A stretch of 64,000 bases of DNA from Iphione sp. A-MEVVRFRX5 (lineage: Eukaryota). Positions 3,001 to 42,223 of this stretch are shown here, piece by piece. Every line of letters starts with the position of its first letter. Within the stretch, counting starts at the first letter, position 1. The DNA lies in the NCBI GenBank assembly GCA_976226885.1, contig OZ320316.1, positions 89,280,001 through 89,344,000 of the forward strand. Direction: 5' to 3'. The notes under the pieces are model-generated. The model saw nothing but the letters and a program-made list of their open reading frames with translations, searched no databases and had not been told where the DNA came from. The translations under genes were made by a program, and so were the position numbers.

Positions 3001-3128
3001 ATGTAGGGTTGGCCATAGCAGCGTCAGAAAATATTTTTCAAGGCTCAAGTATAAACCGCAAGCCTGATATGTATGATTTGGGACCTACTTTGTTTACAGT
3101 TCTTACCATCAGGTTTTGAAAGGCATAG

Positions 3129-3144
3129 ATATATATATATATAT
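3129..3144. repeat. (AT)8 microsatellite at the element's left junction; (AT)4 lies at the right junction, 7285-7292
   Basis: Read directly: agATATATATATATATATgtctaac and tcacATATATATcgcc. Confidence 0.9.
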
Positions 3145-3189
3145 GTCTAACAATGACAACGCATCACAGGGAATGGGAACATTCACGCC
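3141..3189 (-). repeat. Split direct repeat B2
   Basis: atatgtctaacaatgacaacgcatcacagggaatgggaacattcacgcc, identical to 3333-3381. Confidence 0.92.
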
Positions 3190-3215
3190 TTTAATAAATA
3201 GATAAATACAATGTA

Positions 3216-3336
3216 AAAATTGAAACAGTCGAGTGTCGTTACGAATACATGACGTATGAGGGGTTGCATGGCGACTATCACAGTTACCATAGTCCTTTTG
3301 CGACATATATTAATATAATATTTATATATCACATAT
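3216..3336 (-). repeat. Split direct repeat A2
   Basis: 121 bp, aaaattgaaacagtcg...atatcacatat, identical to 7168-7288. It overlaps B1 by ATAT. Confidence 0.92.
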
Positions 3337-3381
3337 GTCTAACAATGACAACGCATCACAGGGAATGGGAACATTCACGCC
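3333..3381 (-). repeat. Split direct repeat B1
   Basis: Identical to 3141-3189; lies about 50 bp downstream of the YR stop codon. Confidence 0.92.
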
Positions 3382-3433
3382 CAAACCCAACTAAAAACAG
3401 AAGGAAATTGTTTCCTCACAAGACAAGAGGGAT

Positions 3434-4368
3434 TCAAATCTCAAAAAAAACATATTGTAAAACACACCACGAACGCCAGTTCCCTCTGTCCTTTATCACA
3501 GATAGATCAACTCCTTGACTTGCTAAAAAGGTAGTCCCACTTCTACGGAAACCATGTGATGAGACTCTGACTCCTGAAGTAACAAAATCACAAACAAACT
3601 TCAATTTCTGCATGAAGTTATCATATTCCAAATATACATCCCTACCACTACGCTGGTAACAAAAAATTAATTGTTTCTCATTCAGGAAGTGCTTGCCTCT
3701 CCATAACTTGAGCCAAGTCACCGCACACATCTGGTAAGAGTTACAGTAGTAAATTGGAATTGAATAAACATCAGATTTTGAGTACACACATTTCCCTCTT
3801 GAAACTTTAATAATGGCCCCAAACTCAGTAAACTCAACGTCCTCCCATCTTAACCCACTAGATGAAGTAAAATTTTCCTTCCGTAACAGACAACGGAAAG
3901 ATAACACGCATGCCAGCCAGAACATTTGGTCATTGACTCTTGAATGATCAAGATTATCAAATATCCGAAACATGTCCTTCAATGAAAAGGCATAGGCTCT
4001 AACTGGTGGCCGATCATTACATTTCTTTAAAGCCATTAAGACTTGAGAAACTCCAAAGTCACAATACAAAGGTGGCGTGAAACCTTTAACCTTCGACCAA
4101 TAAATAAGTCCTGAGAAATAATTCTTAATAGAACTATAACAAAGCGATCTTCCTAGATAAGTTAGGTAAATGCATGCTTATTAGAGCATGGAAAGGCTTC
4201 CAAATCGAATTCATTGCAGAAGTTCTCATAGTTCTCCAGCTGCTTCTTCCTGCACTTCAGCATGTTTGATGACAAGGCCTTCTCCCTCAAACTCCTCATC
4301 TCTCTCTTTAGATTCACCAGCTTTCCTGCAAATAGAATACAATGCATCTCTATAGCAGGCATTTTCAT
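3434..4368 (-). pseudogene. Tyrosine recombinase ORF of the Ngaro element, about 310 aa, frameshifted at about 4177-4180
   Basis: The N-terminal part (4368-4178, ...LREKALSSNMLKCRKKQLENYENFCNEFDLEAFPCSN) continues in another frame as ACIYLTYLGRSLCYSSIKNYFSG into ORF 3434-4069. That ORF carries catalytic-type motifs FRCLLRKEN, SSHGFRRSG and GNWRSWCVLQY. The first 143 nt overlap the pol 3' end. Confidence 0.88.
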
Positions 4369-6292
4369 ACCAAAGGTCGTGCTTCACTTTCCTTAAGGCG
4401 ACACAATCATTACCTCTAGAAAAGGCATCGACAATATAGTTGTCATTCGAACTGATGTACTCAACTCTAAACAGGATGTTTCTAAAGACACAACACCAAA
4501 AAATTTCTCTGAGCCACCTCATGCATGACCTGTTGTGACTCCCTCCTGACCGAAGCATGTAAAGAACGCTAGTATTATCAACTCGGATCAGGATAAACTT
4601 GTTCGATAGGGCTTCACCCCACCTCTTCAGGGAGACAAGGACTGCCCACAGTTCATACACATTAATGTGTTTGTCGTACTTGTCACACATGGGTGCATCC
4701 TCACGGTGGTGATCACAAATGTCCATAGGCCATGCCAAATCGGCCCATTTCCCAAAAAACCAGTCTTTGCCAAACCAGCCACTGAAGCCTACAGAGGAGG
4801 AGTCTGTTGTTACCACACTTTCAATTTGCAGGGTCTTGATAATCCTCTTCTTTCCGTTGAACATGTCCATTAGAGTTAACCACCATTGTAGGTCTTCTCT
4901 CACCTCATCACCAAGCTTCACATAACCCCTATGACCATTCATGCTCTTGACCAAATCATACAAGCTCCTTGTATAAGTTCTCCCTCCTTTCACGACTGTG
5001 GCGCAATGGGATAGCGATCCAGTCAGGCTCTCTACCTCTCTCTTGGACAATTTCTCTTTAGCTAGAGCATCTCTAATTTTGACTTTCACATTGGCCACTT
5101 TCTCTTCTGGTAGTGACAATTCCATTCTAACTGAATCAATACAGATTCCTAGGAATTTACATTTCGTTGCTGGAACACTACACTTTTCTATAGCCACATC
5201 AAAACCAATATCACATATCACACTGTTTAACATATCCTGGAAATAGGAACATTCAATTTGATTTCCAGCAGTAACCACAAAGTCATCTAAGTAGATTACA
5301 ATTCTACCATTACACCTGTACTGAAATTCAGAAACTATCAGATTTGACAAACAACTGAAAATGTATGGGGCACATTTAAGCCCGAAACATAATGAGTTAT
5401 TGACATAATATTTTTCGGGCTCATTCTCAAAACACCAACTGAAACCTTGAAATTCTCTATGGCTTGGGTTTACAAGTACAGAACGGTATGCACTTTTGAT
5501 GTCGCTAGTTGCTAGCCAATCACCCTCCATCAAGGAGTTACAAACATCATCCACAGACTTGAATGTGAATTCTTTATGAGTGCTCAACATAAAATTGTTG
5601 ATAGCCTTCCCTGGGGGCATTGAGCAGTCCGTAATTGGCCTAAGACGGCCATCACCTTTAGGAACTCCCCCCAGGGCATTCACACACCTAGGCCTAGGCT
5701 GAACCTCTGAAATCTGGCCCTGTTTAAGCTCCATTCTCACCTTCTCGTCCATCTGTGACCTAAAATTCTCATTCTTGAGAATTGAATCATAATTTTTACA
5801 AGCATATTCTGTCTCACAACCAGGGTCAACAATGTCAAACCCATCACTGATACCTTTCCACAGCTCCGTCACCGCCGTGTCACTAAGGCTCGACTGGTTC
5901 AGGTACACAAAACACCTGCAACATTTTTATGGATTAACGATTCCACCTAAACTGTGTGAACATTTACAAGAACCATCTATACACTCTGAGGATATTTCAT
6001 ATTTCTTGTCACCTATAACACTACTCACGTACAGCACCCTAGAATCATCACTTGACTCGTCCAAAACAAAACGGCGAAGCGCCTCCCGTACGCTCAATGC
6101 CGTCACTACGTCATCGCCAACGTTACCAATGTCACTTATGACGTCATCCTTGACGACCTCTCCATCATCAACAAACGGACCGTCTTTTTGAACGTCAACA
6201 TCAACATGCCAATAATTCATGCTGGGGATGAAATTAATAATAGATGACTCACAAAACTCCTCCTCTGATGGTGGATCAACTAGCGTTTCTAG
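4226..6292 (-). pseudogene. Pol (reverse transcriptase + RNase H) of the Ngaro element, with one internal TAA at 5929-5927
   Basis: RT motifs DIKSAYR, LCFGLKCAPYIF, IYLDDF. RNase H motifs TTDSS, INVYELWAV, RVDNTSV, IVDAFSR. Track ORFs 5927-6220 and 4226-5908 are in one frame separated by a single TAA, and that frame is open back to the gag stop. Confidence 0.9.
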
Positions 6293-7138
6293 TCAATCTT
6301 TCCTGCTTGACGACTTGGTCTTACTTGCACTGTCAACACCAGCTGACTTGCCCGTACCACAATCCGATGACTTGTGACCCGACTTCTCACAACTTTGGCA
6401 AACATGCCTGAATTTACAGGCCTGATCATCGCAGCCTCCACCATTATATTTGAAGCATACACCTCTGATCTTCTTGCCTTTCTTCTTGGCTTCTTTTGCC
6501 CTTGCTACGTCCACCGTAGCATCTAGGCTAAGGCATCGATGGACAAGGATCGTGTCTCCGTAACAAAAGCTGTTCACCTCTTCTTCTTTCGCCTTCTTTC
6601 TCATTTCAGCGTCATACTCAATCAACGATGAACTTGTATAAATTTTCGTTGATGCCCTATCAGCAACGAAGGCCAGATGATCGATATATCCACTCACGTC
6701 CCTCCCCTTGGAGATAAGATGCTTCAGGAGACCGATTGATCCCACAATCAGATCCTCGTACGTATCCACCTTCTGGGACTTCACAAATCGAGAAATCGAA
6801 AGGCCCTTCGATTTCTTACCTGACTTCTTCTTCCTCTTGCCTCTCTTGCTCTCCTCTTCACCACTATCACTTCCAGAATCTGAAGAGGATTCATCGTCAT
6901 CCGAAGAGCTGCTAGAATCTGGGGTCTTCTTCTTGCTCTTACTTGTCGGCTTACTGGCCACCAGCGCCTGCAACATTGTCTCCAACTTCTGGAAACGCCT
7001 CTCGACTAGATCAGTCTGTTTAGGATCCTCCAAAACATTTTCAGTGACTATAGGATGATCCTGACTCTCCCTCTTACAGTGCTTGCCCACAGGAGAAATA
7101 TGCTTGCAATCGCACTTCTTACAGAATTTCTCCATCAT
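6293..7138 (-). CDS. Gag-like ORF1 of the Ngaro element (281 aa from ATG 7138)
   Basis: N-terminal CKKCDCKHISPVGKHC motif, acidic/Ser-rich and basic tracts, and C-terminal CFKYNGGGCDDQACKFRHVCQSCEKSGHKSSDC (CCCH plus CCHC zinc-knuckle type). It sits first in the element. Confidence 0.85.
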   Translation of the reverse strand: MMEKFCKKCDCKHISPVGKHCKRESQDHPIVTENVLEDPKQTDLVERRFQKLETMLQALVASKPTSKSKKKTPDSSSSSDDDESSSDSGSDSGEEESKRGKRKKKSGKKSKGLSISRFVKSQKVDTYEDLIVGSIGLLKHLISKGRDVSGYIDHLAFVADRASTKIYTSSSLIEYDAEMRKKAKEEEVNSFCYGDTILVHRCLSLDATVDVARAKEAKKKGKKIRGVCFKYNGGGCDDQACKFRHVCQSCEKSGHKSSDCGTGKSAGVDSASKTKSSSRKD

Positions 7139-7167
7139 GAGTAACTCAGCAGCACGTCCTCTCACTC

Positions 7168-7288
7168 AAAATTGAAACAGTCGAGTGTCGTTACGAATAC
7201 ATGACGTATGAGGGGTTGCATGGCGACTATCACAGTTACCATAGTCCTTTTGCGACATATATTAATATAATATTTATATATCACATAT
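7168..7288 (-). repeat. Split direct repeat A1 (element 5' end) containing TATATAAA at 7280-7273
   Basis: Identical to 3216-3336; ends 29 nt before the gag ATG. Confidence 0.92.
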
Positions 7289-9628
7289 ATATCGCCCCTT
7301 ACCCCGGTAATCTATCTACATCTGATAGATACCGTATCCACTAAGTGATCTCCCCTTTATATATCTGTACACCAGTCCTTAAGACCTATTTGAAATAGAG
7401 TGAAAGTTCTGTGCCCAGTCCATAACGTATTTGGAAATACTATCAAAAATTGTTAAAGTGTTTACCTCTTCACATTTTATTGAAAAGGCCCATCCTTTAA
7501 AACGTTTCGAAATTATATTTAAGGTCAGTGTTTTATATCCCGCAAATTTGTGTTGACATGTTTTTAAAATGTTTTCACAAAACTGTCCGTGTGACCTTTT
7601 TGTAGCCTGTTTCAAATGGTTTCCATTTCACGTCTTTGTCAAAACTGTATGTTCTTGCTGCGCATGAATGAATTTAATACATTGAATAAACGTTCAGTAC
7701 TGCAATTACCTTTCATTTGTACACGTTGAGATAAGAATAACCCATTTCAGACATGTGCACTCCTAAAACCTCCAAACCTTTGAATGTTTTCACTGAAAGA
7801 CATTTGAACAGATGAATTCCATGCTACCGCAAGGAGATTGTGATGCAACTAGTTTACGTCGTGTTATGCCACAAAGTGGCCCATTTGGTTGGCATTAAAA
7901 TGGCTCTCCTTGACAGATACATGTAAAATTTAAAAGCCCGCCGGCGAGTGGCCATTTGCAATAATGTGCGGAAAGTAATCCAATCATTCCTCATAGACCT
8001 CCATGAATCAGTCAGACAATATTAACTGTGCGACACTGTCCCGATATTACTACACACGTGATGCCTTCTACTCCATTATACCCCGCTTGACTTCGATATC
8101 ACCAAAACATTGATGCTGGGAGCTTCATTATTCATTCGAACTTCGAAGACGAAATGTGTCATACAGGTACTACTTATTTTCAGCCATAATCAAGTCATCG
8201 TCCATCACGATCACGTACAATATTTATTCTAAAACAATCAATGATGCAAATTAATAGGTATCCCTCGGAGAAACTGGGTCACTGTTAATATTCGCCCACT
8301 GACCCAATTAGGCTGCATGCTACAGCACAATTGAACATGCTTTTTGTCAATTTGTGGTAATTTTCTGTTTCCCGACACCTCCCCTTGATGAGCAGTAGAA
8401 AGAAAATGCCTTTCCATGTGATGTAAATTGAAAGGCGCGTGGATTGTCCAACACCGCACAAGGCGACTTGAGCTTTTCACATCTGTGTATGCTATACATA
8501 GCTATCTTGCATAGGACCAGTAGCCATGCACCCATGGGTATATATGTATTCTGTGGCCGAAAACCATCACTAATCGAGGGGTGCAGGGGTGTACAGAAAC
8601 ACTGGAAGCAATCACATAGATATTGTATAGCACATGAAGGTACAATCTCATTTTCTCGGGCATACTCATGTCAAAATGGAACAAATTCATCCCCTTCCTG
8701 TCATATCTTTTCAAAATAGCACAATTTACACAAATGTGATTGTAGACACGTGTGTGCAAAACCAGCACACTGAAAAGAGAGAGGTAACAATCATTTGGCA
8801 CTACTATTTCACTCAACTATGGTACTCGGGTAACTTATCTATAAACATGTTTCTTTAGTGCAGTATGAAATTTCTTCATGTCCAGATATGACTTTAGTTG
8901 TGACGGCAGTTTGTTCCAATGCTGTGAGCCCTTGTAATGAAACCTTCTCTGAAACCATTTGGTCCTGGGTGTTGGCTGATATATTGTTGACTTCCTCCCA
9001 GTTTTGATGTTGTCTTTACAATTATAACATTTGAGTATGATCAACTTATGGATTATGCTAATCAGATGTACCTTGTAAAGATCCCATAAGGCACCAATTT
9101 TACCATCTTCCTTTAATTTCCTCGTCGACATAATCACACCAGCCACTTGGTGCAGGCTTGCATTCAATTCCCTTTGCAGCTCTACCTGAGCTCCTTCTTT
9201 GGCTGACATATACATGTAGAAGGTAATACCATATATACATAAAGCATTATGAATGCTTTAAACAATGTTATTCTATTATGATATGGTATTTGCTTTGCAA
9301 TCTTCCCTATGTAGTAGCTGTGTAACTTGATCTACCATCTTAGTGACTGGATCATTGGAATCCAAGACAAGACCTCATCTATAGTGAATCCCAGGAGTTT
9401 ACACTTCGCATGTTTAGCTATTTTCTTAACTTTAAGTCTCACATCAAGATCAAAAGCTCTACTCTTCCCAAAATGACATATAAAGTGACTTGCTTTCATT
9501 GATTTTTAACCCATTTGCCTCTGTCCATTCGGAGATCCTATTTAAACCATGTTATAATTTTATCCTTAGGGCCTCTACATTTTAGGCAGTTGCGATCAGC
9601 AAAATGTCATCTGTGTACATCACTATTA

Positions 9629-10395
9629 CAGGAGAAACTCACTTTGCGACCTCCTCACTTTGCGACCAAATCGACTATTGCGACCATTTTGGGTCGGAAC
9701 GGAAGCAATTTTAGTACATTTACCATATGATTACATATCGCTTTGCGACCATATTGCTTTCCGACCAAATTCACCATACGACCACACCTCCTAGGGTCAT
9801 TTTTAGTACATTTTAATATCACTTTGCGACCGCCCAGCCTGGAGGGGTGAGGCCGAGAGTGGTCGCGGGGTGTCGGGGGCGTCAACGGGGACGTCTCTGA
9901 TGTTCCTCGCACCTTGGAGAGGTAGCCCGAGAGTGGTCGCGGGTGTCAACTTCGACGACTTTGATGGTCTCTCACCCTGGAGGGGTGAGGCCGAGAGTGG
10001 TCGCGGGATGTCGAGGCGTCAACGGGGACGTCTCTGATGTTCCTCGCACCTTGGAGGGGTAGCCCGAGAGTGGTCGTGGGATGTCGAGGCGTCAACTTCG
10101 ACGACTTTGATGGTCTCTCACCCTGGAGGGGTGAGGCCGAGAGTGGTCGCGGGATATCTTATTTTTAATCTCATCTATATGCTAGAATAAATGGGCACTT
10201 CAGTTTGAATTATTTTGTTTTGTTTTTTATTTGTTTTTCTCTATTGAACCTTTAATATGGGTTATTGAACACTAACCAATTGATTTCTTTAGGAAACAAG
10301 GGGAGGGGGCCTCAAATTATCACTTTGCGACCATATTCAGAATTACGACCATTTTGGGCCGACCCAAGTGGTGGTCGCAAAGTGAGTTTCTCCTG
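9629..10395. mobile_element. Tc1/mariner-superfamily (pogo/Tigger-like ends) non-autonomous element (MITE), 767 bp
   Basis: Perfect 23-bp TIR CAGGAGAAACTCACTTTGCGACC (9629-9651 and 10373-10395). TA duplicated at 9627-9628 and 10396-10397. Multiple subterminal GCGACC copies and no coding capacity. Confidence 0.88.
9841..10155. repeat. GC-rich dimeric tandem repeat inside the MITE (A 75, B 63, A 74, B 72, partial A)
   Basis: Units start ggag(g/a)ggt at 9841, 9916, 9979, 10053 and 10125. Each contains gagagtggtcg(c/t)ggg. Confidence 0.85.
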
Positions 10396-11994
10396 TATAT
10401 TAACCATAATCGCTTCAGGAAGATCATTTACTAAAATCGTAAACCATAGGGGTCCAAGGTGACTCCCTTGAGGGACTCCGCACTTAATAGATTGAAGGCT
10501 CGATATGCAGTTATTGCATGCCACACACAAGAATGGGACAAACCATTTCAGCGACGATGATGGTACACCCAGTGTTGCAAGCTTTTCTATAATTTTTTCT
10601 ATAATTAGTGAATGATTCACCACGTTGAACACTTTGCTCATATCAATCATGGTTAGAGCACTGTGTCTAGTGTTGTCTACTACTTGACATATCTCGTAGG
10701 ATCATAGCTGCAGCTGTGTCTGTACCCTTCATGGTTATGAACCTGTGCTGTTGTGGACATAAGTTATTTGCAAGTAAATAGTCCCTTAGCTGGTCATGTA
10801 CCAATTTCTCAAAAATCTTGCCGACAATATTTACTATTGCGACAGGTCTGAATTTTTGTTGTCATTGCTTGCTCCTTTTTTGAATATTGGTCGTATTCTT
10901 GATATCTTCCAGCTTTCAAGGAAGATCCCCTTACTCAAACAAATTTTATACATATCACGAAATTGTTTGACGCTGCAAAGCATCACATCTTTTATGACAA
11001 ATGTAGGTATACCCTGTATCCCACTGGATTTATGGTCCCTAACTGCTTTCACCGCCCTTACAATTTGTCTATCACTGGGACAATTTCCCACCGACTATCC
11101 GATTGGTTTTGCAGCGGTTTTTATGTGAAATTCTTCTGATATCCTTTTGGCTTGGTTTACAAAGAATTCATTCAAGATGTTAGGGACCTTACCCAGTGGA
11201 ACTTGCTGACCATCTTCTATTAAATTTATGATATTAGAATTGTTACCTTTGTTTAGTAGTTCCTTGTTGATGACATGCAAGTAGTCCTTTGTTGACTTAC
11301 ACGAGCGGAGCTTACCTGACATATACTGTCTCTTCAGCGTATGCCTTAGAGCAGCTGGTTTAGCTTTATGAAATTGGGCTATTTGAAAATCATCAGGATT
11401 GCAAGTGCTTCTGTACCCTTTCAAATAAAAATCCCTGTTCACAATTACCTGCAATAGTTTGGCACTTACCCAGGGTTTTCTTGCCTTTTTTCTGCGATGC
11501 TTTGCTGGACACTGAATATGCAGTTCTTTTCGAACAGCCTCTTCAAGTTTTGTCCAGGAGCTGTTCAGGTCACTTCCCTCATCTACTAAACTGTCACGCT
11601 CTGTCTCTATTGCCACGAAGAGTTTCTGCTTATCCTAGTTTCTCCAGGAACGATATTGTACAACATTAGTCGTTTTACATTCCCGGGGTTTCTGTTGACT
11701 GTACATTGACTGCAAACAGACCCATATACCAAATTATGTATGCCTTGAAACCATACCTTAGATGCATTCCCGTTCCATATGGTAGTTTAAGGGCATTTAC
11801 AGATACTAGAGGCGGAGGTGGACCGGACAGAGCAGAAGTTAGCATTGTTCATTTTCCGTTTTCTGCACCCTCCTTGGGCTATCTTGAGCATCACTCATAA
11901 GTGCACTTCAAATACCACATGCGTGGACGATGCACATTATCCTCATTTCCGGCTGTATCTCAAATTATCTTTCTTCTTTCTACCCCTGTCTCTG

Positions 11995-30993: not shown

Positions 30994-31626
30994 AGTGCGC
31001 TGAGCTGAGACCCCAGGTGACCGGAGCGTGGCGGGGAGCGGCGGGTACGGAGGCGGCGCGAATCTGCAGTGGGCCACCAGTCCCAGCCAATACTGGGGCT
31101 CTACTCGGAGAGACCACGTGGCCGGCGGCCTAGTCACAACAGCCAGCCTGCACGAACCTTGCCAAGGCCCACCAGTCATCTACAGACAGGAGGGCAGGGC
31201 GCGTCTCCAAAAGCTACCGGTGCTGTCTGGCAGAGAAAATAGCACAGGCTACCCAGTGTCATCTGGTATTAAAGGTAAAACGTACTGCTGAATGGTGAAC
31301 ATTGCCTGTCGGATAGAGCCGTCGCTGTTTGACGTAAGTCCATACCTGGGCGCAGAGAGATCAGCCAGTGCCGGCGAGGGAAGCAGAGGACAGGCGGATT
31401 GCAAGGGTGGATGCAGCGGTGAGCTTAAACCATTGATCCTGCCCCGCCTACGCCTAACATCGGTCCCTGCCGGACCACTGTGGGCAATTGCTTTACGGCA
31501 AGGCGGTAACTGCCGGGCTGGGGGCTGGCGAACACGCCAATGTACAGCGGCACGGAGATTGTCACTCCAGGCATTGGCCCCGGAGGAGGCGCCTGACACT
31601 GAAGAACACATGGAAATTCCACCACC

Positions 31627-34347
31627 ATGGAGGTACCACGGAAAACGATAGCGGTGGTTCCCTTCCTCCTTCTTGTCCTGCTTCTCCACTCTTCGGCAAG
31701 CAGGACACTCCGGAGGAAGCGGCAGAGTGAGATTCTTCATTGTCAGATTCTCGAGGAACTACCAGCTGGGACGTTAGTCGGAAACATTATAACTGACGCA
31801 CGTTTGAATCTGAAGTATAATGGGTCGGAGCTGTCCAAGCTCCGCTTCAGCTTTCTGACCCAGCCCGATCTAGACCGCGAATACTTTGCCATAGAGACTG
31901 CGACAGGTATTATCACAACTACTGACAGAATTGACAGAGACAAATTGTGCACCCATGGCTCGGAGTGCTCCGTTAAGTTCGACGTAGCTGTGCGACCTGT
32001 GAAAAATTTCCAAATCATAAAAGTAACAGTGGAGGTTCAGGATGTCAATGACAATGCCCCATATTTCCCACAGAGTAGAATTACACATCAAATCTCGGAG
32101 TCGACCTTACCAGGGACAAGTTTCAGCATACCTGCGGCCAAAGACCCTGATAGTGCAGCGAATGGCGTTCAAAGGTACGAACTTGTGTCAAGCTCCAATA
32201 AGTTTGAGCTTAAAGTCAGAGAAACTGCCGACGGCGCCACCGACCTGCGACTGGTGTTGATGGATGAGCTTGATAGGGAACTTGTGGACTTCTACCAGGT
32301 AAAAATTCTCGCCCACGATGGGGGTGAACCATCCAAGTCCGGCTCAGTTCTCATCGATATATCAGTATTAGATGCGAATGACAATGATCCGGTGTTTGAA
32401 AACGCCACTTACGAAGTCGTTGTGAAAGAAAACGTGCCAATCGGCACAACTATATTCCGTGTTACGGCCAAGGACCCAGACAAAGGTGCAAATGGTGAGA
32501 TTATTTATCAGCTTTCTCGGCACACACAGCAGAATTATGGCGATCTGTTTGATATTGATAGCACAACGGGTGAGATATTTGTCAAGGGGCCAATAGACTA
32601 TGAGAAGGGAGCGATATATCTCTTGTCTGTGACAGCATTCGATAGTGGTCCTGACTCTCTACCTGCTCATGCTACAGTTGTTGTGAGAGTTCAGGACATG
32701 AACGACAACGCTCCACAGATAACGGTGAACACTCTAACCACAAGTGGGGATGCCCAGGTAGCAGAGAATACACCCCCTGGTACATTTGTTGCACATATAT
32801 CAATTATTGATGGTGATAGTGACAAAAATGGGAAGTTCAGCTGCGTACTAAGTGACACGCATTTTCATCTCCAGAAGCTCTATCTGACAGAGTACAAAAT
32901 CGTCACGTCTGCTATATTTGACAGAGAGCGGCTTCCTTACTTCGATCTTACCCTGGAGTGTAGAGATAAAGGGGTACCGCCCCAGAAATCCTTCGCACAT
33001 ATTCGAGTCACGATACTCGATGATAACGACCACACGCCCCAGTTTTCCCAGCCCATGTACACGGCTACTATAATTGAGAACAACCTGATAGGAGAGTTCA
33101 TCGTCGCCGTCACTGCCAGCGATCAAGATATAGACACGAACGGCCGCCTCAAATACGAGCTCGATGAAGATGCCCGTGGTCTGGTCGCCATCGATGAGGA
33201 TACCGGAAGTATCACCGCCAACGTCATCTTTGACCATGAGGAGCTGTCTGAACTGCAGTTCCACGTCATCGCCAAGGACCAAGGCTCCATCCCCCGTTCG
33301 ACTACGGCCAAAGTGCTCATCAGCATCGTCGACATCGACGATGAGATACCCCGCTTCCAGCAGGAGACATATGCATTCGGTACATTTGAGAACCAGCCTG
33401 CCAACATCGAAGTGGGCCAGGTAGTGGCTAAGGACCGCGACTCGGAGCCCTACAACCACTTCTCCTACTCCCTGGATCCCAGCCGCAGTCCAACGGACGT
33501 GTTCAAGATCGATCCACAAACCGGCAGGATCCACACACAAAAGGTTCTAGACCGGGAGGAAAAGCCGGTGTATTATATGGTCGTTGTCGCAGCCAGCGAC
33601 GAGGATTATAGCCAAAGCAGCACGGTAAGCGTGTCCGTCTATGTGGCAGACAAAAATGACAACTCGCCTGTGTTCGACTTCCCCAGCACAAAAAATAACT
33701 CGCTGAGGATTTCCAACAAAGTGCCTCTGGGCCAGGTCATCACTCGACTGCGGGCACACGACGCAGACTCGGGTAAGAATGCCCGTCTGAACTATTTAAT
33801 CACCACGGGGAACAGCAACAGTGCTTTTGCAATAGACCCTAGCACAGGGGCAATCTCTGTAAATAAGGACCTGGAAGCCCATGATGGTGATAGATTCTTG
33901 CTGCAAGTAATAGTACAGGATCAGGGTGAACCATTGCTATCCGCACTGGGTGAGCTCAATATTTATGTGACTAAAGTGGCAGGCTATGCCAAGTCGAGGT
34001 CTATGAATCTTTCAAAAGACAACCTGATTATCGTCATAGTCTTCGTGGTGGTCACTGCTATTATCTCCATGATCATCATAGCTACCATAATTATTATCAA
34101 AAGAAGGGACACAGAACAAAGACATAATGACGAGAACAACAAGAAGGAGCTCCAGCGCATGCTTCCACCACTTGAAGACGTCAATGGTGCTCCTGGCGGG
34201 AAGGTCAAGGCATCAAATGCCTACGTCACTGCAGTAGAAATGGACAATTTAAAAAGTAAAAGCCTTGCTGCTGGAGCAGGTGAAAATGGCAATGCTGCAA
34301 AGGCAGCTTTGCAAGCAGATGGTAGCAATAGCCAACGACAGGAAGAG
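31627..34347 (+). CDS. Protocadherin (7 EC repeats, delta1/lophotrochozoan-like), large coding exon; 3' exons not found in window
   Basis: Kozak accaccATGG and a hydrophobic signal peptide. Seven cadherin repeats with DxNDNxP-type linkers (DVNDNAP, DANDNDP, DMNDNAP, DDNDHTP, DIDDEIP, DKNDNSP) and DRE/DYE/AxDxG motifs. EC1 C-x5-C (CTHGSEC), TM LIIVIVFVVVTAIISMIIIATIIII followed by KRR. Phase-0 donor GAG|GTAGGT at 34347/34348. Confidence 0.93.
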
Positions 34348-37300
34348 GTAGGTTAAGATGTTTGATTAATCCTCACTCTTTTCCCCACTATTCCATGTTT
34401 CTTTGAATTTCAAATGATGCTGTTGAGATGAGTCGGCTTATTCGTGAGAGAATGGAAGGCATTTGTCAGAGAGTTTTTTTTTTTAAGTTTTCCTAACCGT
34501 TACATTTAAGCATGTTTTCTTTGGTGCCAAAGGTATTTAAATGTTACCAATTATTTCCCATTAATCCGGGATGGAGTTCCTATATGGTAACACAGTACAA
34601 CGGTACAATTTGCATCCAGCGCGATTGACAAAAACATGTTACACAACAGAAATGAAAAGCTGAGCTCCTGCTTCACTTTAAATTGGAGAGGCATGGGGAG
34701 GTACATGTATACACTCTATGTGTTTGCATACGATGCGCACACGCCTACGTTCTGGAAAAGAATACAGATATTCGAAGTTGGATGATAAAGATCACGTGCA
34801 CGGCAACAGACAATGACGAATGTCTGTAAAGGACCCCGCTGAGGGCCAAGATGTATCATCCTCCTCGACTAGGCGAACCAAATTGGATACCGTGATCTTC
34901 ATATAGATCACTTCACACAGAACGCAGGTCGCTAGGGCTCATGCTTGCCCGTATCTGTCTGATTTGCATACACCGCCCATGAAAGTACCGGTGCAGACAG
35001 CCCGACCGACCTATGATGAGAGTGTTTGCGTCTTTGCAACTGGCTGAAATAACACTGGAGTTGGGAAGACATTAAAAAGTGATAAGACTCAGAGATCGAT
35101 TCCTGTAGCTTGCCTTTCATGCTTGATTAATTGTACAGCTGACAATCTGTGATCAATAATGGATGATCGCTGGGGATCAATCAGGGATCCAATCATGATC
35201 TAGGTCCATCAAACCCTCGGCATGAAGCGTCGATGTGGCCGCCGCCGAGACCTGTTCATGACACGGATCAGATCACCACTACAACATACATGCTTGGCAC
35301 AAAAGTCGCTGACAGCGCTCTGTCAAAACACACCAACAAAACCACTAGCTATCCCAACAGAATCCAATAATAGCCCGTAGTTGGCGATAAGGGCATCCAA
35401 GCCCAAGGCTTTATGAATTTCCTTTGATATGCAATTTAGAGGAAACCGCTTCTGGGACAAGAGTGAATGTTGTGAGGAGCCTTTATTACAATAGATGAGT
35501 ATCTCCTATCAAGCGGAAAGATCACGCATGCTTATGTGTACATGCACGAACTCTGGGCAATAGTTGCACCTTCAAACCATCACCGCGGAAGGATAAAACA
35601 TGCTCATGATAATTTATCTACAACATCAAAGTTTACCTTCCCGTTCGGAAAGTCTTTCACCGCAGTTTTATGAGCGTAAATACTAAGATTACAGACATCA
35701 GGTTACAGATTAAGAACAAAATTTTCATAATGGCACACGAGATCTGTCAAAGCAGGTCCCATTGTCTTGGCGTGCAACAGTACATAACGAGGACTATACG
35801 GAGGTGTATGCATGCACATGAATATAGATTTATCTTTCTAGGCTGGTAAAACAGTAGACACAGTATCGAGTTTCATTAAACGTAGATAGCTGTAGCTGAA
35901 GAACACGAAGAACCTTCCTGCTAGTCAGAACCCGACTATGTATAGTACGAATGTACATGTTTATGTAATTCCAATATCACTTGTTGCTAAAGTTGTGGAC
36001 ATTCTGCCTATTATTTCTTTCATGTAACCGAAAGGTGCCCTTTTAACAAAAATATTCGAGAACATCACACTCAAATTCGCTTGTGAAACGAGTCTTTCCA
36101 GTAAACTTCCACGATTCAAATTAAGATTTTACTAATATTTGCAAGTCTTCTCACAAAAAGACTTGTTGCGGATGGCCAGGTAATGTTATCTATATTTGCC
36201 GTCGGCATTATTATCAAGAGGAAAGCTACCCTGTCACTGCTTCAATATTTGAATTACTAAACCACGGGCACACCTGAAGCATCGAAAGCAATGAGTCTCT
36301 ATCGACCGCCTCCTGTTGCAGGATTAAAGTAGCCTAAGCGATTAATGTGGAGCTCAGTGAAAACCGGATACCTGTAGTCGACGGGATATTACTAGATAGG
36401 CACTAAGTATGCAGGATAACGGACCGGTTTAGCTAAGCCAACACATGCCTGTTATTGTCCCTACATTAGCCCTGCTGTTGCGACCAGCGCATTCTGCAGA
36501 ACACAAGCTAACGGGGAGGTTTTGATGGGAACTAAAAACGCTTTGAAAAGAAGCGTTCAAAGCATTCTCTGAGGGAAGTGGAAGTAATACTGAGTTTGGT
36601 CGTGCTACCGCTGAGATTTGTAGAATGGACGCAGAATGCTCTTTTTGAATTGATGTAAGCTTGATGTATTAGCTCATTCTCATAATATTTTCGAATGATA
36701 AGAAAAACGTGTGGTGACTTAATGTACTAGATATTGTGCAGTAGAGGCTAGGTGTGTGTAAATAGATGCCAGTCTATCCTGACACCTGTTCTCTTTTCGA
36801 AATCCGTGACCCAGCTTTTAAGGCACCATCAACAAATGGACGCCTCTCCATCCGCGCCACAACAAAATCGTTTGATATCACATAAAGCCCCCGGCATTCT
36901 TTACTGACCTGAAAAGGTAGGAAGGTGCTGCGGCAGCGATTCTTCCCTAGCGATTGCTAGCATCGCCAATATTCACACCATTCTAGCAAACCCTACCTCA
37001 TAAAAACCTCATTGTGGCCTGTTTCCTGGTGCCGGTAGCAATGGCGAGAGCTAGCTTCCAGGATGCCGGTAGGGATGGCCTGCGAGTAAGGACAACGGAT
37101 GCAGTGGCCATCACACGACGTATGAGCTGCGTTTGTATAGCCTTGTTTGGCTAAGTGATCAGGACTAGCGGTGCACCAAAGGAATCCAGAGTCAGTCCTA
37201 CATTTCGGCAGCAAACGTTTACCATTTGAAGGGGTGAACTTGATTAAAGAACTTGCCCCTGCCGCTGACGCGTTCACTGAGAGGACTGAATCAACGAAAC

Positions 37301-40743: not shown

Positions 40744-40879
40744 GTGATAGATACATAAGGAGTACGTGGCTGTATGCAATATATTGTCACGGCAGGGATT
40801 AGCACGAGGCGCAGCCGAGTGTGTAGCCCTGCCGTGACAATATATTGCATACAGCCACGTACGAGCTTATGTATCTCAC
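40744..40879. repeat. 136-bp near-perfect palindrome (hairpin-type element)
   Basis: Perfect 36-bp arms at 40762-40797 and 40827-40862 (gtacgtggctgtatgcaatatattgtcacggcaggg). Outer arms gatacataag/cttatgtatc and gtga/tcac. The 29-bp centre contains CAC-GA-GGC-GCA-GCC-GA-GTG. Confidence 0.9.
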
Positions 40880-40903
40880 TTAAAGCAAGGCCCCCTCTCT
40901 ATC

Positions 40904-42147
40904 CCTCTACAGAGCATTACAGGATACAAACAACAGGTCACACACACCTCTACAGAGCATTACAGGGGACACACAACAGGCCACACACACCTCTACAGAG
41001 CATTACAGGGGACACACAACAGGTCACACACACCTCTACACAGCATTACAGGGGACACACAACAGGTAACAGGCAACTCTACAGATCATTACAGGGGACA
41101 CACAACAAGTCACAGACAAATCTACAGAGCATTACAGGAGACACACGATAGGTCACAGACACCTCTACAGAGCATTACAGGGGACACACAACAGGTCACA
41201 AACACCTCTACAGAGCATTACAGGGGACACATAACAGGTAACAGACACCTCTACAGAGCATTACAGGGGATGCACAACAGGTCACAGACACCTCTACAGA
41301 GCATTACAGGGGACACACAACAGGTCACAAACACCTCTACAGAGCATTACAGGGGACACATAACAGGTCACAGACACCTCTACAGAGCATTACAGGGGAC
41401 ACATAACAGGTCACAGACACCTCTACAGAGCATTACAGGGGACACATAACAGGTCACAGACACCTCTACAGAGTATTACAGGGGACACACAATAGGTCAC
41501 AAACACCTCTACAGAGCATTACAGGGGACACATAACAGGTAACAGACACCTCTACAGAGCATTACAGGGGACACAACAGGTCACAGACACCTCTACAGAG
41601 CATTACAGGGACACATAACAGGTCACAGACACCTCTACAGAGTATTACAGGGGACACACAATAGGTCACAGACACCTCTACAGAGCATTACAGGGGACAC
41701 ACAACAGGTAACAGACACCTCTACAGAGCATTACAGGGGACACATAACAGGTAACAGAGACCTCTACAGAGCATTACAGGGGACACATAACAGGTCACAG
41801 ACACCTCTACAGAGCATTACAGGGGACACACAACAGGTAACAGACAACTCTACAGATCATTACAGGAGATGCACAACAGGTCACAGACACCTCTACAGAG
41901 CATTACAGGGGACACACAACAGGTCACAGACACCTCTACACAGCATTACAGGGGACATACAACAGGTAACAGACACCTCTACAGAGCATTACAGGGGACA
42001 CACAACAGGTAACATAAAACTCTACAGAAGGTTACAGGACACACACAACAGGTCATACACAACTCTACAGAGGGTTACAGGGGACACACTGCAGGTAGCA
42101 CACACCTCTACAGAAGGTTACAGGACACACACAACAGGTTACACACC
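40904..42147. repeat. Minisatellite, 43-bp unit, 29 copies
   Basis: Consensus cctctacagagcattacaggggacacacaacaggtcacagaca. Units counted at a 43-bp period, except 41 bp (at 41549) and 42 bp (at 41590). Edge units are more diverged. Confidence 0.95.
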
Positions 42148-42223
42148 CATGTACAGCCCAACAGAGTGATTTTGTCCAACAATGAATTTGTCACCACTAC
42201 CAACATGCACTTCTCAGAGTAAA

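Follow-up and report, generated by a model that had tools for sequence, protein, structure and literature searches.

Ngaro elements (order DIRS), which are described from, e.g., Cafeteria and Xenopus (DIRS-53_XT), harbor split repeats, a gag-like ORF1, a reverse transcriptase (RT)/RNase H and a tyrosine recombinase, and do not carry a methyltransferase (PMC8547959, PMC3783388, PMC3266345, in the available excerpts). The repeats are found in the order A1-[ORFs]-B1A2B2 (excerpt of PMC8547959), and tyrosine-recombinase (YR) retrotransposons are described as lacking a protease (excerpts of PMC3783388 and PMC3266345). The RT of DIRS-1 is suggested to be able to act in trans (PMC7192593, excerpt). 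The arrangement of the reading frames is presented in different ways. In Xenopus Ngaro all ORFs overlap in different frames, and overlapping ORFs are also described in the accessible parts of PMC6681497 and 10.1101/2021.08.05.455354, while one overview states, in the part available, that overlaps are not usual in Ngaro elements (PMC3266345). The premise of the original prediction, i.e., that YR elements are usually described with overlapping ORFs, thus holds for Xenopus Ngaro but not for this overview.

Bypass of a stop codon between gag and pol is already known in other retroelements. In the gammaretrovirus MoMLV, the stop codon is UAG, accompanied by a purine-rich spacer and a pseudoknot, and the polyprotein is cleaved by the virus's own protease; the proposed purpose is the same as that considered below, i.e., to keep Pol at a set, low proportion of Gag with a single RNA. 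In the Candida albicans LTR element Tca2, gag and pol are separated by an in-frame UGA, Pol is obtained from the gag-pol RNA, and a purine spacer and a predicted pseudoknot are found at the junction, which alone gave no readthrough in yeast (PMC2194720, as far as the excerpt goes). A different signal is used in type II readthrough, which is found in alphaviruses (UGA CUA) and mammalian genes (UGA_CUAG, e.g., OPRL1 and MDH1) and whose sites carry a UGACUA or UGACGG hexamer. The excerpt of PMC13517186 lists UGACUA as the type II context and attributes at least ~1.3% readthrough to UGACUAG, and the efficiency of UGA_CUAG varies more than tenfold with the P-site or upstream codons (PMC9841425, part available).

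The literature searched, in which the founding Ngaro papers and Repbase were not included, contained no description of YR retrotransposons using translational readthrough, nor did it yield an account of how the downstream ORFs of tyrosine-recombinase retrotransposons are expressed. The term "readthrough" as used in the available parts of 10.1101/2021.04.08.439009 and PMC12440569 refers to transcription.

Here, we describe a locus in which gag and pol reside in one frame across a UGA, as in Tca2 and in contrast to Xenopus Ngaro. It differs from Tca2 by the UGA-CU context and the absence of a protease, and from the gammaretroviral UAG-G in that the stop is UGA-C in all three junctions available as DNA. 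Its sequence is exactly the UGACUAG of type II sites, with the downstream ORF in frame, while the relatives have UGA-CUU and UGA-CUG and therefore share UGACU only; an extended 3′ stem-loop, which type II sites require conditionally, does not clearly rise above shuffled sequences in any of the three. The element is very probably a damaged, Ngaro-type member of a clade that keeps gag and pol in frame across a single stop.

Structure and damage of the element

The window, i.e., the whole stretch of 64,000 nucleotides analyzed, harbors on its minus strand a Ngaro-type retrotransposon of 4.15 kb, at 3141-7288 (Table 1). The repeat order, A1-ORFs-B1-A2-B2, is that of Ngaro, and the gag-like, RT/RNase H and tyrosine recombinase ORFs follow each other in the Ngaro order on a single strand. 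The RT-RNase H frame closes at TGA 4228-4226, such that pol ends shortly past RNase H, and in the recombinase both His-x-x-Arg and the Tyr region are visible. A Pfam search of the element at E up to 0.1 revealed no methyltransferase or protease domain, and no inverted repeat was found within the element; the features of DIRS1-like elements, inverted terminal repeats with an internal complementary region plus a methyltransferase, were thus not encountered. Because the tree described below is without named references and split repeats also occur in PAT-like elements, the Ngaro assignment is one by structure rather than by RT grouping.

Table 1. Features of the Ngaro-type element, in window coordinates.
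Feature	Position	Strand	Evidence or remark
Split direct repeat A1, left element end	7168..7288	-	121 nt, 100% identical to 3216-3336
Split direct repeat A2	3216..3336	-	121-nt repeat, 100% identical to A1
Split direct repeat B1	3333..3381	-	49 nt, same sequence as 3141-3189
Split direct repeat B2, right end, adjoining (TA)n tract	3141..3189	-	49-nt repeat
Gag-like ORF1, 281 aa, Cys/His knuckle 21 residues before stop	6293..7138	-	Aligns with relatives' gags; profile of the alignment recovers similarly built gags
TGA that closes gag, sharing the pol frame; candidate for readthrough	6293..6295	-	Same layout in L001 and L003
3′ context CTAG	6289..6292	-	CT common to L001 and L003, AG not
10-bp hairpin around stop; real fold, not conserved	6274..6298	-	Folding and comparison with relatives
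Open acidic linker and start of conserved pol region	5930..6292	-	Cys-x-Cys-x-His motif at codon 109; first ATG 6220
Second in-frame stop TAA; private damage or assembly error	5927..5929	-	Conserved Leu position
Reverse transcriptase-RNase H	4226..5926	-	RVT_1 E 1.3e-16, RT_RNaseH E 0.0034; 306 relatives
Candidate splice donor within gag (behind codon 106; phase 1)	6814..6822	-	Best of 296 GT sites, crude score
Candidate splice acceptor at recombinase start, phase 1	4325..4343	-	Best of 330 AG sites; homology to L001 recombinase starts at this codon
Tyrosine recombinase, overlaps pol end, frameshift between 4183 and 4174	3434..4326	-	Phage_integrase E 2.3e-6; two frames in tblastn with L001 recombinase

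The original prediction described gag and pol as separated by one UGA only, which overlooked both the frameshift in the recombinase and a second in-frame stop, TAA 5929-5927. The latter is codon 404 and is located ahead of the RT domain, at a site that is Leu in 44 of 54 relatives (the motif-matching ones of 120 examined). Because of these two lesions, this copy cannot make the 970-aa fusion. A second copy of the element was not found within the window. The terminal repeats show zero differences over 170 nt, yet the coding region carries two disabling lesions, a combination that may reflect either errors of assembly or the recent mobilization, in trans, of a copy from an already defective parent.

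The element ends in and adjoins a (TA)n tract (window 3116-3145 and 7284-7296), and B1 and A2 share 4 nt of AT-repeat. Such ends are as expected if the recombinase uses a short AT core for integration and the target is not duplicated.

Elsewhere in the window, a 917-codon ORF at 31603-34356 (+) encodes six cadherin repeats and is protocadherin-like, which points to an animal as the host, and a tandem repeat array at 40838-42169 (+) gives rise to repetitive open frames. Fragments of a decayed LINE-like element are found at 10312-11634 (-), with an RVT_1 match (E 6e-10) in 10315-10701. At 9627-10397, 28-nt inverted repeats 715 nt apart flank five copies of a 71-nt unit; this region is possibly a small non-autonomous DNA transposon.

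The gag-pol junction in the window and in relatives

The junction reads AGG AAA GAT TGA CTA GAA ACG (6304-6284, minus strand). Counted from the gag ATG at 7138, the TGA at 6295-6293 is codon 282, in the same frame as RT-RNase H, and the first in-frame Met after the stop is the 25th codon (ATG 6220). The sequence thus agrees with the original prediction as regards a gag TGA-CTAG followed by 24 sense codons in the RT frame. The heptamer TGACTAG occurs at 5 of the 2535 TGA triplets on the two strands of the window.

A metagenome scan yielded three loci within the clade, one of which (L002) is a fragment that does not include the junction; a further locus, L006, does not cover it either. At the DNA level, the comparison thus comprises three junctions, those of the window, i.e., the discovery locus, and of L001 and L003, which belong to other families; pairwise RT identity among the three is 34-40%. 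In L001, where gag, pol and recombinase are otherwise open, the junction is TCC GCC TGA CTT TCG, and in L003 it is AAG GGG TGA CTG TCG. In both relatives the gag knuckle resides in the pol frame and exactly one stop, a TGA, is found before the pol core. In RNA terms, the UGA is followed by CUAG in the window and by CUUU and CUGU in the relatives. Among the stop triplets of the L001 and L003 loci, 13 of 158 and 7 of 88, respectively, are TGACT, which gives a joint chance of ~0.007 before the frame condition is applied. The proposed check of relatives for conservation therefore gave a divided answer: frame, UGA and CU are kept in L001 and L003, but the full CUAG and the hairpin are not.

In a quick IQ-TREE search of 70 RT-RNase H rows (support by SH-aLRT only, without bootstrap), the window, L001, L003 and the proteins P0109, P0139 and P0369 fall in a 54-row clade with SH-aLRT 98. 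The in-frame cases are spread over this clade, including its deepest branch, L001. The sister clade of 12 rows, which includes elements with split repeats (L004, L005), served as a control by frame only, with 10 of the 11 loci cross-checked. None of the 11 sister-clade loci having a 5′ part displays the layout with a single in-frame stop; the knuckle is in another frame in nine, and several stops lie between in the other two. With the window excluded, 2/2 in-clade loci versus 0/11 sister loci gives a Fisher p of 0.013, for kin that are not independent. The in-frame layout and UGA-CU recur in distant relatives, which makes a private mutation in the window, named beforehand as a refuting outcome, unlikely; fused calls in two or three more families point the same way.

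Six more distant elements (L009, L015, L017, L023, L024 and L026, the last not placed in the tree) have the gag stop ~190-600 nt upstream of the pol ORF, in another frame. The L001 contig has identical 89-nt ends (1-89 and 4304-4392) and assembles as a 4.3-kb circle, which represents a circular intermediate or a collapsed repeat. The bacterial-bin records G001, G002, G004 and G005 (loci L004-L053) hold many eukaryote-type retrotransposons, with 43 matches in G001 that include other RT classes; these are probably host DNA in the bins. Relatives were not found in viral_contigs.

RNA structure around the stop codon

The 10-bp hairpin proposed at 6298-6274 folds as claimed (-10.1 kcal/mol). Its z score is -6.1 in a 33-nt window chosen around the hairpin and -1.4 in 121 nt, and folds at least as good are reached in 15 distinct places of the element, by 3% of its 3877 33-nt windows. 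A comparable hairpin at the stop is absent from L001 (z +0.1) and L003 (z +0.8). With no counterpart in these relatives and equal folds elsewhere in the element, the hairpin was rejected as a conserved signal and is probably incidental, although it may still have a role, given that the viral stem-loop of PSIV starts within the stop codon (PMC13517186, excerpt). In the 120 nt 3′ of the stop, z scores against shuffled sequences are +0.7 (window), -1.9 (L001) and -1.1 (L003).

Gag proteins and fused gene calls

A profile built from seven gag-containing sequences retrieved 150 proteins, 147 of which were new. The Cys/His knuckle is present in 91 of the 147, and in 89 of these 91 the protein stops 4-21 residues past the knuckle; the corresponding distance in the window gag is 21. 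Directly before the stop, Lys is found in 71 of the 89 gags, compared to a Lys content of 20% in the rest of their tails (p 6e-33; P0202-P0348), while the three DNA junctions have Asp, Ala and Gly (window, L001 and L003, respectively) at this position.

Several gene calls continue from gag into pol. P0139 (1100 aa) is composed of a complete gag, a Trp, the linker and pol, and in its cluster all four full-ended gag calls viewed stop at the Lys that precedes the Trp. P0369 (1104 aa) has the same composition, i.e., a complete gag, as judged against P0370, a Trp and pol. The pols of P0139 and P0369 are 68% identical, from which we take the two to represent separate but related families. In a single further sequence, P0109, the Lys at which related gags terminate is followed by Gly-Leu. 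In P0139 and P0369 the Trp may be a TGA called as Trp, or a point change, either of which would imply an in-frame stop; these are protein calls, in which the identity of the stop codon is not visible. The residue after the junction is Ser or Asn rather than Leu in both, so CUN is not universal. Fused gene calls are a biased sample and make up one of 15 and one of four listed members of their clusters. The pol calls in the P0139 family begin at residues for which the fused call has Leu.

Other candidate fusions were set aside. P0161, a gag without the knuckle joined to pol, resembles a deletion and was dropped, and P0238, with Gln-Gln-Leu where the junction is expected, and P0256 resembled in-frame fusions by eye but were not counted. 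When compared with 171 pol N-termini (E up to 0.05), their tails gave no match, and the same was true of P0290 with its long tail. A search for longer fused proteins with a gag query scored 0 of 601 candidates, and one with an alignment query returned nothing useful in the range that it covered, 1618-4620 aa, which is outside the expected size.

Expression of the recombinase

In both elements compared, gag harbors the best-scoring donor and the top-ranked acceptor is found where the recombinase starts, all in phase 1 (window 6819 to 4326, minus strand; L001 1038 to 3273); the scores are from approximate frequency tables and serve for ranking only. Splicing between these sites is predicted to join the N-terminal half of gag in frame to the recombinase. 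Homology between the window and L001 recombinases begins at the acceptor codon, and a Cys-Cys motif is followed within seven residues by Arg or Gln in 71 of the 87 pol tails, compared to an expected 25%, an excess that a kept acceptor would cause. The recombinase is thus probably made by splicing.

Discussion

The explanation that we favor, and consider likely on the basis of these comparisons, is that intact members of the clade make a Gag-Pol fusion by occasional readthrough of the UGA. Most ribosomes would stop at the UGA to yield Gag, while a few percent would insert a residue at UGA-CU(N) and continue to yield Gag-linker-RT-RNase H, in which RT would be kept attached to Gag by the variable acidic linker. 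The fusion would probably stay uncleaved, because such elements are described without a protease (PMC3783388, available part) and none was found by Pfam. The recombinase would probably be made separately, by splicing from inside gag to the acceptor at the pol end. Readthrough is thus the best reading for intact clade members, but the fusion of about 970 aa that was originally proposed is not a product of the copy in the window. Several observations count against readthrough: no stimulatory structure is conserved (z -1.9 to +0.8), CUAG is not kept, and Lys is the last residue of most gags but of none at the three DNA loci. The Tca2 junction, which has the same layout but alone gave no readthrough, and the more than tenfold spread in UGA_CUAG efficiency also weigh against it.

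A further observation against readthrough is that in four of the six junctions with a located core (window, L003, P0369 and P0109) an AUG precedes the conserved pol region. It would fit a model where Pol starts at its own AUG (6220 in the window), either by reinitiation after gag or from an RNA that is spliced or starts internally, and where the common frame and UGA-CU are inherited but unread. In the window, ATG 6220 is preceded by an acceptor-like site that ends one base ahead of it, at 6222; splicing is also probable for the recombinase of the element; the L001 AUG is in a good initiation context; and Tca2 has a minor promoter at the junction (PMC2194720, excerpt). On the other hand, this acceptor is weak (rank 10 of 330 by the crude score) and in phase 2, while the best gag donor is in phase 1, so that the two do not join gag to pol, and splicing into pol from that donor was rejected. 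In L001 there is no AG dinucleotide between the stop and the first Met, and in both P0139 and L001 the first AUG is inside conserved pol sequence, behind a conserved motif (Met 195 and motif 120 in P0139; Met 20 and motif 11 in L001). Initiation at a separate AUG also leaves unaccounted for that the frame and TGA-CT are retained at 34-40% RT identity, and we regard it as unlikely.

The Lys residue that ends 71 of 89 gags (against 20%), the lack of a conserved 3′ structure and the Tca2 precedent would also fit a bypass of another kind, either non-canonical as in Tca2 or, in the Lys-ending families, a frame slip at the Lys-stop. This explanation is considered very unlikely: all three DNA junctions are in frame, and the fused calls of two Lys-ending families keep every gag residue and have Trp exactly at the stop, for which a sense reading of an in-frame stop is simpler than two deletions at the same codon. 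Still less probable, to a degree where we give it hardly any weight, is that the family encodes a single Gag-Pol ORF, with the TGA, like TAA 5929, being a nonsense mutation private to a decayed copy. While this copy does carry two other lesions and fused ORFs exist (P0109, P0139 and P0369), the stop is located where the gags of the clade end (89/91), the same TGA-CT is found in L001, where no break is seen in gag, pol or recombinase, and the fused calls are just one of 15 and one of four listed cluster members. Occasional readthrough of the UGA is accordingly retained as the preferred explanation.

A more comprehensive and clearly speculative model would have a large Ngaro-like clade obtain three proteins with one promoter and no protease: termination would yield Gag, a leaky stop an uncleaved Gag-RT-RNase H, and splicing a half-Gag-recombinase. 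The leak would be signaled in either of two interchangeable ways, by UGA-CUN in some branches and, in most of the others, by a conserved Lys codon preceding the stop, and the clade would then constitute a natural library of readthrough contexts.

The type of mechanism is already known, and the copy in the window is dead as regards the readthrough fusion. Because pol calls in the clade start at arbitrary codons, a leaky stop would change how these elements are annotated. A leaky stop that is conserved would also place this order among the retroelements whose Gag-to-Pol ratio is set by recoding.
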